Shown: positions 50,719-53,220, counted from the first letter of the stretch. The stretch is DNA of 64,000 nucleotides from an uncultured Bacteroidales bacterium (GCA_944326305.1 CALVDL010000006.1:3538-67537); one strand, 5' to 3'. Translations and numbers: made by a program. The notes: generated from the sequence alone by a model not told the origin.

Positions 50719-50782
50719 TTTCTAAACAAGTTTCATTCTCTTGCGCCACACTGGCGAAAGCCGGTGCAAATGTAATAAAAAG

Positions 50783-50820
50783 ATAAAATAAAAGGCATGT
50801 CCCGATAAAGAACATGCCTT
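50783..50820 (-). terminator. Terminator after the small membrane-peptide ORF
   Basis: AAGGCATGT/ACATGCCTT 9-bp stem followed by TTTTATTTT on the minus strand. Confidence 0.75.
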
Positions 50821-50848
50821 AAATTATTTCAGTAATCTCATTTTGAAG

Positions 50849-50938
50849 TTAAGATAGCCAGATGAATGAAGAGAGAACACCGGCCACCAGCAGCAGTGCT
50901 CCGACTCTTTTAACCAGCTCCAGTAAAAATTCTCTCAT
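50849..50938 (-). CDS. Unannotated 29-aa hydrophobic small protein
   Basis: MREFLLELVKRVGALLLVAGVLSSFIWLS*, below the ORF-track cutoff. It has an upstream terminator, its own promoter-like motif, an A/T-rich leader and a downstream terminator. Confidence 0.65.
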   Translation of the reverse strand: MREFLLELVKRVGALLLVAGVLSSFIWLS

Positions 50939-50971
50939 GACAGTACAATTATTAATCAAACAACGCCCTAT

Positions 50972-50999
50972 AGATGCAGGCTCTGCTGAAAACGTTGCA
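50972..50999 (-). promoter_or_regulatory. ECF-like promoter motif, copy 1 (small-protein gene)
   Basis: TGCAACGTT-TTCAGCAGAGCC-TGCATCT, 33 nt upstream of ATG 50938. Confidence 0.7.
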
Positions 51000-51028
51000 C
51001 ACGGCGGAGAGATTTTTCACCCGGACTG

Positions 51029-51058
51029 AAAAAAAATGCCGGATATGCGGACTCCGGC
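51029..51058 (-). terminator. Terminator of the lipoprotein-rSAM-lipoprotein operon
   Basis: GCCGGA-GTCCGCATA-TCCGGC followed by a T run. Confidence 0.8.
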
Positions 51059-51085
51059 GGTGAGAGGAAGACGCGGCCGCGCCCG

Positions 51086-51553
51086 TCACCACTCGCGGAA
51101 CATCTGTATCAGTATTGGTTCCTCGCATATATAAAGACCTGAGAACCATTCATCTGCCAGATTGTCCGACCCCTCGACAAAAGTCAGCGGGACGGTATAA
51201 CGGGCATCATAATAATGGCCCCAGTTCAGCCCGTCATCCATATCCACATCCACAGCGGTGACAACCATGCTGGAAGACGGGGTGAACGTACCATATAGAG
51301 AGAATCTCCCGTCAGGCTGCACATCGGTATAGGTCATGCCCCAATACTGGTCGATGAAATATACCCTGACGCCGGAAAGAGGCTGCCCCAGATCGTCCAC
51401 CACTGTCCCTTCCACTTCAAAATCGGCATAGGGGAAGCCGTATGTCCCGTTGGGGCCGCTCCCGCCGCTGATTTCACAAGAGAGGAGCAGCGGCATGGCA
51501 ACCGCCGCCGCAATCCATGCAGACCTGAATGGCAGGGCTGCCATTATCTTCAT
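51086..51553 (-). CDS. Radical SAM-associated lipoprotein, paralog 2 (TIGR04134-like)
   Basis: Lipobox LLSC, then GTYGFPYADFEVEGTVVD. Start uncertain (51568, 51553 or 51544). Confidence 0.75.
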   Translation of the reverse strand: MKIMAALPFRSAWIAAAVAMPLLLSCEISGGSGPNGTYGFPYADFEVEGTVVDDLGQPLSGVRVYFIDQYWGMTYTDVQPDGRFSLYGTFTPSSSMVVTAVDVDMDDGLNWGHYYDARYTVPLTFVEGSDNLADEWFSGLYICEEPILIQMFREW

Positions 51554-51588
51554 ACAAAATCCTTTCATCATAGTCCCTGTACACCTGT

Positions 51589-52656
51589 TCAGATGATCCT
51601 GTCCATATGGCACAGCATGAGTTCCCCCGCGTCATTCCGCAGATGCATCCCGTTGCCCTCGCAGTAGCGGAACCATCTGCAGCTGCCGCACTTGCCCTTC
51701 TTCATCCATGACCTGTCCCTGTACGGGACAAACCTGTTCTCCCACACGTCTATGAAATCATCCTCATATATGCTCCCCTGATGGTAGTCGCTCCTGATGC
51801 TCGGACAGGCCGAGATGGAGCCGTCTGCAAGCACCGAAGCCACCGAGAGACCGGCCTGGCAGGTATAAAGGTGGTCCCTCACCTTGCCCTCGAACTCCCC
51901 GAGGAAGCCCTCGCACCCGTAGCTTGGTATTATCCGCCCCTCCTTCCTTGTCCTGGATATGAATTCCATAAGCCCCCTGAACCGCTCTCTGTCAAGCTGC
52001 AGGTCCGGGTCTGAAGCCGCCCTCCCGGCCGGGAAGACAGTGAAAAGTCTCCATTGCCGCAGCCCGAGAGAGATCAGGTAATCCCTGAACTCAGCCAGGG
52101 TCCCGTAGTTCCTGTTGTTCACACAAGTGACCACATCGAATTCCACGGAGCTCTCCGCGGCAAGTATCCTTACTGCTTCTTCCGCATGCCTGAAACTGCC
52201 GGGGACACCGCGCATCCAGTCGTGGTCCTGCATGAACCCGTCCAGGCTCACAGTAGCGGAATGGAGTCCGGCGCGAAGCAGGGATTCTATCTTGCCCGGT
52301 GTCATGAGCATGCCGTTGGAGACCAGTCCCCACGGGAACTCCATGCCGTATATCTCCCTGCCGCACTTTTCCAGGTCCTTGCGCATGAGAGGTTCCCCGC
52401 CGGTCAGGATGACCATGATATGGTGCGGGTCATACCGTTCCTTGATACGTGCAAGGACTTTGCGGAAATCCTCAAACGGCATGTCCGGCCCGACGGATGA
52501 TATATGGCAGTCACTGCCGCAGTGGCGGCAGTGCAGATTGCAGCGCAGGGTGCACTCCCAGAACAGCTGGCGCAGAGGATGTTTCTCCTGCTGCTCCTTT
52601 ATCAGCTGGCGGTGGAGCTCAAGTGCCAGACGCTGTTTAAGTGAAATACCTGTCAT
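51589..52656 (-). CDS. Radical SAM/SPASM protein (TIGR04133-like rSAM/lipoprotein system)
   Basis: WECTLRCNLHCRHC (CxxxCxxC), TGGEPL, SPASM cysteines CQAG..GSISACPS..CGSCRWFRYCEG..LC. Confidence 0.88.
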   Translation of the reverse strand: MTGISLKQRLALELHRQLIKEQQEKHPLRQLFWECTLRCNLHCRHCGSDCHISSVGPDMPFEDFRKVLARIKERYDPHHIMVILTGGEPLMRKDLEKCGREIYGMEFPWGLVSNGMLMTPGKIESLLRAGLHSATVSLDGFMQDHDWMRGVPGSFRHAEEAVRILAAESSVEFDVVTCVNNRNYGTLAEFRDYLISLGLRQWRLFTVFPAGRAASDPDLQLDRERFRGLMEFISRTRKEGRIIPSYGCEGFLGEFEGKVRDHLYTCQAGLSVASVLADGSISACPSIRSDYHQGSIYEDDFIDVWENRFVPYRDRSWMKKGKCGSCRWFRYCEGNGMHLRNDAGELMLCHMDRII

Positions 52657-52708
52657 CCGGAAGAAAGAACTTTAAGAAGCCGTTTGGACTTTTCGGTGAC
52701 GTCCAGGT

Positions 52709-53164
52709 CTACCAGTCAGAGCTGATATCACGTGTAACCGTAACCTCTACATCCCCGGCACTGAACATGCCGGAGTACCATCCTTCACCATCCGACACAT
52801 GCTCCAGAGAGACAGAGACGGTCACCGTCTGGAAAAGACCTCCGTTCTCCTCCTGGTCAGTGTCCTCCACTTTAACCAGGACCGACTCCGAAGGGAAGAA
52901 CGAGCCTGAAAGGGAAAAACGGCCCTCGGCATCGGTAGTCCCGGTCACGACCGGTTGCGGATTGCCGTTCTGCTCCATGGCAGACACTTTCAGTCCCTGA
53001 ACCGGCTGCGAAAGTTCGGCATCCACAACCTTTCCCTTGACTTCAAAGTCCGCATACGGTGATCCGTATTCCTCCCGCGCTATAAAAGGAGAATTGCAGC
53101 CTACGGCAGAGAACCCGAGAAGAGTAAGCAGGCATTTACAGATACTTGTGATAAAAGATTTCAT
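52709..53164 (-). CDS. Radical SAM-associated lipoprotein, paralog 1 (TIGR04134-like)
   Basis: MKSFITSICKCLLTLLGFSAVGC lipobox, then EEYGSPYADFEVKGKVVD..VKVEDTDQEENGG. Confidence 0.85.
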   Translation of the reverse strand: MKSFITSICKCLLTLLGFSAVGCNSPFIAREEYGSPYADFEVKGKVVDAELSQPVQGLKVSAMEQNGNPQPVVTGTTDAEGRFSLSGSFFPSESVLVKVEDTDQEENGGLFQTVTVSVSLEHVSDGEGWYSGMFSAGDVEVTVTRDISSDW

Positions 53165-53192
53165 AATCAATCATTTTGGCTAGACAGCCGGA

Positions 53193-53220
53193 AGATGCAA
53201 GAAAGGGAATGAACGTTGCA
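53193..53220 (-). promoter_or_regulatory. ECF-like promoter motif, copy 2 (rSAM/lipoprotein operon)
   Basis: TGCAACGTT-CATTCCCTTTCT-TGCATCT, 28 nt upstream of ATG 53164. Arms and spacing are identical to copy 1. Confidence 0.7.

Follow-up and report, generated by a model that had tools for sequence, protein, structure and literature searches.

A conserved ECF-type promoter motif links a lipoprotein-radical SAM operon and a 29-residue membrane peptide gene to a predicted sigma factor regulon in an uncultured Bacteroidales bacterium

Our results indicate that TGCAAC-N16-GCATCT is, very probably, the promoter recognised by an ECF sigma factor encoded on contig C3 of this genome (hereafter the C3 sigma), and that a radical SAM (rSAM) operon and a gene encoding a membrane peptide of 29 aa belong independently to its single regulon. 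Both transcription units lie in the window, the whole 64,000-nucleotide stretch of DNA that was analysed.

Two exact copies of TGCAACGTT-N12-TGCATCT, with the same 16 fixed bases and the same spacing, are found on the minus strand of the window, as the original prediction had reported, and no match was obtained in any of 100 dinucleotide-shuffled windows. Copy 1 occupies 53193-53220 (-35 TGCAAC at 53220-53215 and -10 GCATCT at 53198-53193, separated by a 16-nt spacer) and begins 6 nt past the stop codon of a gltD-like gene, and copy 2 occupies 50972-50999 (-35 TGCAAC at 50999-50994, -10 GCATCT at 50977-50972). The distances given for them were also borne out, since the copies end 28 nt before the ATG of lipoprotein A (53164) and 33 nt before the ATG of a 29-codon ORF. 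A post-hoc pair of 16 identical bases within 64 kb is weak evidence by itself; unlike this pair, the genome-wide test settles whether the motif is real. The 2.78-Mb genome contains 10 occurrences of TGCAAC-N16-GCATCT versus 0.21 expected per spacing (Poisson P ~3e-14), and each of the other spacings from 0 to 40 between the two boxes gives 0-1. The nonamer TGCAACGTT has three genomic copies, all of them directly followed by N12-TGCATCT. One-mismatch variants number 12 in the genome against about 12 expected, which is background, and no clear additional regulon member came from them.

Each of the 10 sites falls between genes and faces the gene after it, whose start is 24-56 nt away, with two exceptions at 148 and 193 nt. 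No TAnnTTTG primary-sigma box is present from -40 to +60 of any of these sites, and among the 10 units such a box is seen further upstream for the C3 sigma gene only. The sites have the features of ECF (group 4) promoters: AAC within the -35, a short -10 rich in C and T, a constant 16-nt spacer, and gene-facing intergenic positions that carry no primary-sigma box.

The third full TGCAACGTT copy ties the motif to an alternative sigma factor, as had been proposed. It lies 25 nt ahead of a gene for an ECF sigma factor (C3:19303-19872), and the motif thus precedes the gene of its candidate cognate sigma, as in positive autoregulation. The product contains only the sigma-2 and sigma-4 domains, Sigma70_r2 (residues 33-99) and Sigma70_r4_2 (127-179), together with TIGR02937, and its best NCBIfam matches are generic and under their cut-offs. 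Comparison of 30 orthologous sigma loci in Candidatus Cryptobacteroides (60-99% identity to the C3 sigma) showed the exact motif upstream of 25 and a version with one mismatch in 4 more, with unrelated spacers between the boxes. Among the first 24 same-genus genomes, all 19 with a sigma orthologue carry at least one motif site and none of the 5 without it carries any (a reversed-pattern control gives 0-1). Homologous sigma/Dma-like pairs across Bacteroidales families are preceded by the related motifs TGCA(A/G)C-N16-xC(A/G)TCT. We infer the assignment of the C3 sigma to the motif from autoregulation and co-occurrence.

The sigma gene forms an operon with a gene for a 430-aa putative anti-sigma factor. 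The N-terminus of this protein has a weak match to the anti-sigma model NF052375 (residues 21-121) with a hydropathy peak at about residues 61-79, corresponding to a single hydrophobic helix, and is followed by an acidic, low-complexity tether of 156 residues rich in E/A/S/G/T and by a C-terminal OMP_b-brl_2 outer-membrane barrel (residues 239-403, E = 2e-10). From this domain arrangement, the protein adjacent to the C3 sigma is predicted to be an anti-sigma factor of the dual membrane-spanning (Dma/Reo) type.

Two other explanations of the motif were considered. One is that the two copies in the window resemble each other by chance or are what is left of a repeat or a mobile element. When position is ignored, a gapped 9+7 match in 64 kb is not rare post hoc, but chance does not account for a genome-wide excess confined to a single spacing, nor for the retention of both boxes across species despite diverged spacers and flanks. 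No similarity between the copies was found outside the two boxes. This explanation is refuted and has practically no probability left. The other is that the motif is the site of a DNA-binding transcription factor and the sigma gene is merely one of its targets. The two halves do share TGCAxC, with TGCAAC and (T)GCATC resembling a direct repeat TGCA(A/T)C 22 bp apart. However, the sites have a fixed orientation and a promoter-like distance from start codons, the primary-sigma -7 box needed for such activation is absent from them, and in shape they are typical ECF promoters, with a -35 containing AAC, a spacer of 16 nt and a CxTCT -10. Furthermore, the site is nearly always found before the ECF sigma gene and is gone where the sigma is gone, and paralogous sigma genes of other families are preceded by graded variants of both boxes. 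A transcription factor site is therefore very improbable, and an ECF promoter remains the preferred reading of the motif.

The 10 motif-bearing units, the sigma operon plus about nine others, have a cell-envelope character. Besides the sigma/anti-sigma operon itself, the lipoprotein-rSAM(TIGR04133)-lipoprotein operon and the monocistronic gene of the 29-aa peptide, the motif precedes an lpxD leader, a cyclophilin lipoprotein, two DUF2807 lipoproteins, two barrel-like proteins and one UPF0126-type channel. Because lipoproteins, barrel-like proteins, a cyclophilin and lpxD are among the targets, the set looks like an envelope regulon. The proposal that an alternative sigma factor co-regulates the rSAM operon and the peptide is supported by the motif copy before the sigma/anti-sigma operon and by the conservation of this arrangement at 25 of 30 orthologous loci; envelope stress, its suggested signal, is something that we infer by analogy. 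Under the model that we favour, envelope or outer-membrane stress would release the C3 sigma from its anti-sigma, as in the Dma/Reo systems, and the freed sigma would then direct transcription of its own operon and of the roughly nine further units. The peptide gene and the rSAM operon would be neighbours in the window only because both occupy the gltD-hisS interval.

The operon behind copy 1 is encoded on the minus strand and starts with lipoprotein A (52709-53164, 151 aa, lipobox SAVGC), which scores 95.7 bits against the TIGR04134 cut-off of 39.8; this is a family described as 'radical SAM-associated putative lipoprotein', and the protein also has a weak CarboxypepD_reg-like match. It is followed by a radical SAM/SPASM enzyme of 355 aa (51589-52656), which has the Pfam domains Radical_SAM and SPASM and scores 558 bits against the cut-off of 425 for TIGR04133 (rSAM_w_lipo), and by lipoprotein B (51086-51571, lipobox LLLSC, possible starts at 51571, 51568 and 51553), a paralogue of A with a TIGR04134 score of 39.0 bits, just under the 39.8 cut-off. 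With the enzyme and lipoprotein A above the NCBIfam cut-offs, the operon can be recognised as a TIGR04133/TIGR04134 cassette. The term lipoprotein-modifying, which the original prediction applied to this operon, is an assumption about the enzyme. The exact motif is kept before the first lipoprotein of the cassette at five loci from other genomes (L002, L005, L006, L008 and L015), and in G087, where the operon is apart from the peptide gene, an exact site precedes the rSAM gene by about 500 nt. Within the sequence compared, the operon of the L030/L031/L033 lineage showed no exact motif, and in the distant genome of L025 an ECF-like CGCAAC-N16-GTATCT lies 20 nt before the lipoprotein ATG.

The ORF behind copy 2 (50849-50938, minus strand) encodes the peptide MREFLLELVKRVGALLLVAGVLSSFIWLS, in which a charged N-terminal turn (E3, E7, K10, R11) leads into a hydrophobic C-terminal helix of 18 residues that includes the small residues A19, G20, S23 and S24; the hydropathy peak is 2.31 at residues 12-28. 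That the ORF is conserved was confirmed, as it has exactly 29 codons in all 17 genomes examined, a pN/pS of 0-0.56 and a clear coding signature. Its variable columns fall mostly on third positions (14/7/23 for codon positions 1/2/3), its stop codon varies among TAA, TAG and TGA at one fixed position, and 12 residues are invariant, the conserved ones including E3, E7, K10, R11, G13, A14, S23, S24 and F25. Sequence conservation thus indicates that the peptide gene is real and under clear protein-coding constraint. The exact motif precedes the ORF in 17/17 peptide-bearing genomes, at 32-47 nt where the distance was measured and with unrelated spacers, and the other 16 genomes all have a sigma orthologue (at least 70% identity) and 3-10 motif sites each. 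G303 has just three sites, one at the sigma gene, one at the peptide gene and one with the conserved spacer of the lpxD leader. The peptide has no match in Pfam or among PDB sequences, and gene callers have called it, in exact form and without a name, on a few metagenome contigs. It would be expected to insert in the inner membrane by its single helix and to act on another membrane protein.

The stretch from the -10 to the peptide ATG (50939-50971, minus strand; ATAGGGCGTTGTTTGATTAATAATTGTACTGTC) is a conserved leader whose core, G(C/T)GTTGTTTGATT, is kept across 14 species and is not shared by the other regulon promoters. The ORF had been placed between two terminators, which holds well for the downstream one only. 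The intrinsic terminator of the peptide unit (50785-50820, minus strand), detected by the terminator scan, has a 12-bp stem, a 5-nt loop and a T-run, and its fold (50792-50820) is predicted at -18.4 kcal/mol (z = -4.6), with 0/200 shuffles as good. The hairpin after lipoprotein B (51029-51057, minus strand) consists of a 6-bp stem closed by a loop of 9 nt and is followed by eight U residues; it appears in the minimum free energy fold, but with a z of only -0.8 it is no better than shuffles, and the scan did not flag it. Given this weak upstream hairpin, some read-through from the operon into the peptide unit is possible. A role for the unit as a His attenuation leader for hisS was rejected: no His codon occurs in the peptide ORF, which is followed by a strong terminator, and hisS is served by a TAcaTTTG promoter of its own.

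The conserved leader bears on whether the short transcript could be mainly, or also, a sigma-dependent regulatory RNA with a secondary ORF, comparable to the sRNAs under sigma-E control in enterobacteria. The conservation of the leader exceeds what a plain untranslated leader needs, the unit is short (~180 nt) and ends in a strong terminator, and the start-codon region is predicted to pair with codons 21-24 in a 10-bp helix, which 92% of cells retain versus 33-59% with slid partner columns and which includes one compensatory pair. That covariation, however, amounts to a single pair, seen in two sequences, in a helix whose two arms are under coding constraint as well, and is too thin for the helix to be claimed; no Rfam family matches the region, where the only hit is a sub-threshold algC match inside the rSAM gene, and the strong purifying selection on amino acids, the fixed 29 codons and the third-position variation all speak against this reading. 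We regard a regulatory RNA, as the main or an additional function, as quite unlikely, although the transcript could still be a dual-function RNA.

The other question is whether, as had been suggested, the peptide and the rSAM enzyme form one system, with the peptide either as a RiPP-type SPASM substrate or as an obligate membrane subunit. SPASM-domain rSAM enzymes often act on small peptides encoded alongside them, and here the two genes lie side by side, both in the window and in the genomes closest to it, and have a promoter type in common. The phyletic pattern argues against it: TIGR04133 is absent genome-wide from 8/17 peptide-bearing genomes, which are 96-100% complete and include one assembled as a single contig, and a ninth has only a TIGR04133 fragment interrupted by a stop codon. 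Conversely, no peptide homologue was found at 26/28 rSAM loci from other genomes, and the two that have it are the closest relatives. Co-occurrence of peptide and maturase across genomes, as expected of a RiPP precursor, was accordingly not found. The peptide has no Cys, its conserved residues fit a transmembrane helix, and its synteny tracks hisS, its constant neighbour, rather than the rSAM gene, the peptide gene usually lying just upstream of hisS. On the basis of this phyletic pattern, membership of the peptide in the rSAM system appears largely refuted and its probability is minimal, and the two units are better seen as separate members of the C3 sigma regulon.

A more speculative idea, to which we give a low probability, is that the peptide is a dedicated output of a Dma-type stress pathway that acts back on this pathway, with the rSAM cassette as a stress-induced surface-remodelling module. 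The helix of the induced peptide, with its small residues A19, G20, S23 and S24, might pack on the transmembrane helix of the anti-sigma or on that of the protease which cuts the anti-sigma, and the peptide could in this way determine how strong the response is or when it ends. If this were true, an ECF system of Bacteroidota would have a feedback micropeptide of the MgrB kind, and the TIGR04133/TIGR04134 cassette an envelope-stress-induced module for surface remodelling. The mechanism proposed for the regulon itself is of a known kind and not new. Dual membrane-spanning anti-sigma systems of gut Bacteroidota are a recent and active topic, having been linked to vesiculation, toxin protection and gut colonisation, and in the literature compared the regulons of Dma systems were defined by RNA-seq on two or three species in culture. 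Here, a paralogous system from an uncultured genus of the poultry and ruminant gut yields, from sequence alone, a sharp 12-base promoter signature and a compact regulon, and thus a simple pattern for reading such regulons in metagenome-assembled genomes. It also gives the TIGR04133/TIGR04134 cassette a testable regulatory context, envelope stress, and adds a new, conserved and unnamed family of 29-aa membrane peptides as a probable core output of the sigma system.

Among known systems, the ECF21 Das/Dma (EcfO/Reo) group shares the order of a sigma gene followed by an anti-sigma with an N-terminal part, an inner-membrane helix, a tether and a barrel, the Dma organisation described in PMC10927553 and PMC13088901. 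It is likewise autoregulated, with a small regulon rich in lipoproteins and envelope proteins. The C3 sigma is, however, a paralogue of EcfO/Das1 and not an orthologue, because the only NigD_N gene of the genome (C5:111978-112742) adjoins a different sigma/anti-sigma pair in an EcfO/Das1-type nigD-sigma-anti-sigma locus (C5:111978-114612), which lacks TGCAAC-N16-GCATCT and whose sigma is 41% identical to the C3 sigma. No NigD, the mark of the EcfO/Das1 subtype, is found among the 10 motif targets, and the regulon described here contains lpxD, a cyclophilin, DUF2807 lipoproteins, the rSAM cassette and the micropeptide. The work of Ndamukong on B. fragilis EcfO, from 2013, is said to define the EcfO promoter motif; the Dma/Das and P. 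vulgatus EcfO papers compared here give no promoter consensus. ECF21 goes unmentioned in the main text of Rhodius et al. 2013.

The window operon matches both NCBIfam models of the TIGR04133 (rSAM_w_lipo)/TIGR04134 (lipo_with_rSAM) cassette, which occurs widely in Bacteroidales and also outside them, for instance in Draconibacterium and Vicingus. We found no literature on its function or regulation; in this genome an ECF-type promoter lies ahead of it, and boxes of a related, ECF-like form are found before the cassette in distant genomes as well.

Single-helix, stress-induced membrane proteins include MgrB, which provides feedback on PhoPQ, the PmrA-activated PmrR (29 aa) and the SOS-induced TisB (29 aa). 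The peptide resembles these three in its similar size, its one hydrophobic helix, its dedicated stress-type promoter and its monocistronic unit with its own terminator, but it has no sequence similarity to them (Pfam, PDB) and depends, by our prediction, on an ECF sigma instead of a two-component system or LexA. In a comparison with type I toxin-like peptides, the hydrophobic helix is present, and the RNA helix that would sequester the start codon is a prediction with a single compensatory pair.

Both lpxD and periplasmic peptidyl-prolyl isomerases are members of the E. coli sigma-E regulon. Classical ECF envelope-stress regulons likewise activate their own operon and have envelope targets, and the promoters of E. 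coli sigma-E, B. subtilis sigma-W/M/X and Streptomyces sigma-E have, as here, an xGxAAC -35, a CxTCT-like -10 and a spacer of 16-17 nt (PMC6767563). The targets of S. coelicolor sigma-E even include TGCAAC-N17-CGTCTG (PMC6767563). The -10 of the present motif, GCATCT, has an A in place of the G of most ECF promoters, and the system further differs from the classical ones in that its host belongs to a phylum with an unusual primary sigma and its anti-sigma is predicted to span both membranes.

The promoter-like sequence TGCAACGTT-N12-TGCATCT was found twice on the minus strand of the window, at 53193-53220 and 50972-50999, as originally noted, and an ATG does follow the end of each copy, at 28 and 33 nt, the first belonging to a 151-aa lipoprotein (ATG 53164) and the second to the 29-codon ORF MREFLLELVKRVGALLLVAGVLSSFIWLS (50849-50938, minus strand; ATG 50938). 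Since 16 matching bases paired within 64 kb are weak evidence by themselves, the motif was tested across the whole assembly (2.78 Mb, 41 contigs, 52% G+C), in which the window is C6:3538-67537. The pattern TGCAAC-N17-CATCT gave 10 matches, all of them with a G before CATCT, and the motif is therefore TGCAAC-N16-GCATCT, a candidate ECF promoter with TGCAAC as the -35 and GCATCT as the -10 element. When the two elements were counted at spacings from 0 to 40, 10 pairs were found at spacing 16 (0.21 expected, Poisson P ~3e-14) and 0-1 at any other. One-mismatch variants numbered 12 in the genome against ~12 expected at random, so the signature is unusually sharp, and the nonamer TGCAACGTT occurs just 3 times, each time followed by N12-TGCATCT. 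All 10 sites are intergenic and oriented toward the next gene, whose start is 24-56 nt past the motif at 8 sites and 148 and 193 nt past it at the other two.

The third full copy, at C3:19250-19277, is followed after 25 nt by a gene coding for a 189-aa ECF sigma factor (C3 sigma) with matches to Sigma70_r2, Sigma70_r4_2 and TIGR02937. The following gene overlaps the end of the sigma gene, and its 430-aa product combines a weak N-terminal anti-sigma match, one hydrophobic helix (~residues 61-79), a 156-residue tether in which E, A, S, G and T abound, and a C-terminal OMP_b-brl_2 barrel. These parts follow the layout of anti-sigma factors of the dual membrane-spanning type, which have been described as partners of ECF21 sigma factors and are confined to Bacteroidota (PMC10927553, PMC13088901, PMC9308784). 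No Bacteroidota primary-sigma box TAnnTTTG was found near the 10 motif sites, save one farther upstream of the sigma gene, where the primary-sigma-like box TATGTTTG (C3:19223-19230, plus strand) lies 27 nt upstream of the ECF motif and suggests that this gene has a basal promoter as well as an autoregulated ECF promoter.

The organism is a Candidatus Cryptobacteroides, and its nearest records, MAGs from chicken gut, are 97-98% identical in the rSAM. The genus provided 30 orthologous sigma loci (60-99% identity); in 25 of these the sigma gene has the exact 12-base signature directly upstream, in 4 more it has the signature with one mismatch, and the 16-nt spacers are unrelated. Among the 24 genus genomes sampled first, the 19 with a sigma orthologue each carry 1-9 exact motif sites; the 5 without one (best sigma match 37-43% identical) have zero, and a reversed control pattern gave 0-1. 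The best sigma homologues in other Bacteroidales families carry graded variants, TGCA(A/G)C-N16-xC(A/G)TCT, and many are followed by a homologue of the barrel part of the C3 anti-sigma. Because of the orthologous loci, the co-occurrence and these graded variants, we take the motif to be the promoter through which C3 sigma regulates itself.

Besides the sigma/anti-sigma operon, the lipoprotein-rSAM-lipoprotein operon and the 29-aa ORF, the predicted targets are lipoproteins (two of DUF2807, one of cyclophilin type), a pair of proteins with a signal peptide and barrel-like sequence, a membrane protein of the UPF0126/Gly_transporter family and lpxD. The motif of the UPF0126 gene (C1:91172-91199, minus strand) is 148 nt upstream, giving the second long leader of the regulon, and that of lpxD, TGCAACGATTGCACTTTCCATTGCATCT (C6:75286-75313, minus strand, ~7.7 kb past the end of the window), is 193 nt upstream. 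The lpxD site was confirmed in three more genomes, and most peptide-bearing genomes have sites of this type, with the same partly conserved spacer, which in many cases share a contig with the peptide gene at a distance of 17-23 kb. The 130-190-nt lpxD leader contains the hairpin GGGGAC-ttgcc-GTCCCC and might act either as an sRNA under sigma control or as a regulated leader for lpxD. Targets found again in relatives are the lpxD site, one barrel-like protein and the rSAM lipoprotein, the remainder there being mainly lipoproteins or secreted proteins, and the whole is, judged from its predicted members, an envelope regulon. Since one genome (G303) has just three motif sites, namely those of the sigma gene and of the peptide and one whose spacer is the conserved spacer of lpxD leaders, these three are taken as the putative core regulon of the peptide-bearing clade.

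The original prediction that the 29-aa ORF is a real gene is borne out by coding constraint, fixed length and the accompanying motif. When 151 genus genomes were searched and then 301 family genomes with a profile, the ORF turned up in 17 genomes of the genus, including that of the window; a match in another genus (L088, E = 0.004), lacking a clean ORF, was left out. The length is exactly 29 codons in all 17, with TAA, TAG or TGA as stop codon at a fixed position, and each has the exact motif upstream (at 32-47 nt in the 14 genomes measured), the spacers being unrelated. Pairwise values of pN/pS are 0-0.56, variable columns number 14/7/23 by codon position, and 12 residues are invariant (M1, E3, E7, K10, R11, G13, A14, V18, L22, S23, S24, F25), the hydrophobic peak being residues 12-28 (mean hydropathy 2.31). 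All 16 other peptide-bearing genomes have a sigma orthologue of at least 70% identity and 3-10 motif sites. Gene callers have called the exact peptide on a few metagenome contigs, without a name, and no relatives were found in Pfam or PDB. The peptide represents a new micropeptide family and a predicted core output of this sigma system.

The peptide gene had also been placed between two terminators. The downstream one is strong (12-bp stem, z = -4.6), but the upstream hairpin, past lipoprotein B (6-bp stem, 9-nt loop, eight-U run), was not flagged in the terminator scan and folds no better than shuffled sequences. Isolation from the upstream operon is plausible, and the peptide can be regarded as a separate unit because it has its own promoter. 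Between the peptide terminator and the hisS ATG, the canonical Bacteroidota primary-sigma -7 box TAcaTTTG (50767-50774, minus strand) is an independent sign that the organism belongs to Bacteroidota and that hisS is transcribed apart from the peptide. The peptide leader just past the -10 (50939-50971, minus strand) is conserved in 14 species, far above the promoter spacer, with the core G(C/T)GTTGTTTGATT (GCGTTGTTTGATTAATAA), which is not shared by other regulon promoters. RNAalifold predicts a 10-bp helix on the minus strand between AUGAGAGAAU (start codon and codons 2-3, ~50929-50938) and GUUCUCUCUU (codons 21-24, ~50869-50878), kept in 92% of cells versus 33-59% with the partner columns slid; there is one compensatory change, G-C to A-U, in two sequences, and both arms are coding-constrained. 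If real, this helix may sequester the peptide start codon. Start codons are hidden in this way in the mRNAs of other membrane-active small peptides.

Within the rSAM operon, lipoprotein A scores 95.7 bits with TIGR04134 (cut-off 39.8), the rSAM protein 558 bits with TIGR04133 (cut-off 425) and lipoprotein B 39.0 bits with TIGR04134, slightly below the cut-off. At five other loci (L002, L005, L006, L008, L015) the first cassette lipoprotein has the exact motif ahead of it, and in G087, where the operon is apart from the peptide gene, an exact site lies ~500 nt upstream of the rSAM gene. In distant Bacteroidota (L025, L016, L024) the cassette lipoprotein is preceded by looser ECF-like boxes, such as CGCAAC-N16-GTATCT in Draconibacterium (L025, 3498-3525), 20 nt ahead of the ATG, and ECF control of the cassette may therefore be widespread. 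A literature search on the TIGR04133/TIGR04134 cassette found no paper.

It had been suggested that the peptide may belong to the same system as the rSAM operon, and this was not upheld. The peptide is directly upstream of hisS in most loci examined, and its other flank is the full cassette (the window, L001, L002/L079), lipoprotein and rSAM only (L030, L031, L033), a lone lipoprotein (L035, L080, L082), an rSAM fragment with an internal TGA (L087, G291:C1:158933-159490), gltD directly (L034, L036/L081, L085) or unrelated genes (L037, L083, L084, L086). A family search found no TIGR04133 gene anywhere in 8 of the 17 peptide-bearing genomes, which are 96-100% complete, one being a single contig, and only a fragment with a stop codon inside in another; conversely, the peptide is absent from 26 of 28 rSAM loci of other genomes. 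These two counts also exclude the peptide as a RiPP substrate of the rSAM enzyme. The cassette between gltD and hisS is decaying or lost in several genus species (L087, L035, L080, L082, L036), leaving an rSAM fragment, a lone lipoprotein or nothing beside an intact peptide gene and promoter. Co-regulation of the two units by an ECF sigma factor, the other part of the original prediction, is supported by the motif statistics, sigma autoregulation and conservation at both, and they appear to be independent members of one regulon.

What the analysis shows is the motif signature, where it occurs and how it is conserved, and that the ORF is coding; the mechanism, in five steps, is inferred. The anti-sigma barrel or tether would sense envelope or outer-membrane stress, C3 sigma would be set free, and, acting at TGCAAC-N16-GCATCT promoters, it would transcribe the regulon along with its own operon. 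The envelope would then be remodelled by LpxD, a prolyl isomerase of the periplasm or surface, barrel-like proteins and a set of lipoproteins that includes the rSAM-associated pair, and the 29-aa peptide would enter the inner membrane by its C-terminal helix and modulate a membrane protein; the most attractive option would be that it feeds back on the anti-sigma or its protease.

The genome also holds a second ECF pair (C5:111978-114612, plus strand), in the order nigD, sigma (186 aa) and anti-sigma (428 aa), with the sole NigD_N gene of the genome and a sigma factor 41% identical to C3 sigma. This order is that of NigD2-Das1-Dma1 (Dma, dual membrane-spanning anti-sigma) in B. thetaiotaomicron and of EcfO-Reo in P. 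vulgatus, both known systems with a NigD regulon. TGCAAC-N16-GCATCT is absent from the C5 locus, and the paralogous C3 and C5 systems thus differ in promoter specificity. Because the C5 pair has the EcfO/Das1-type gene order and no motif, C3 sigma is a paralogue within this kind of system; its promoter specificity is its own and its regulon differs. An ECF sigma factor with a dual membrane-spanning anti-sigma is a system of a known kind, of which the one described here is a new and cleanly defined example.
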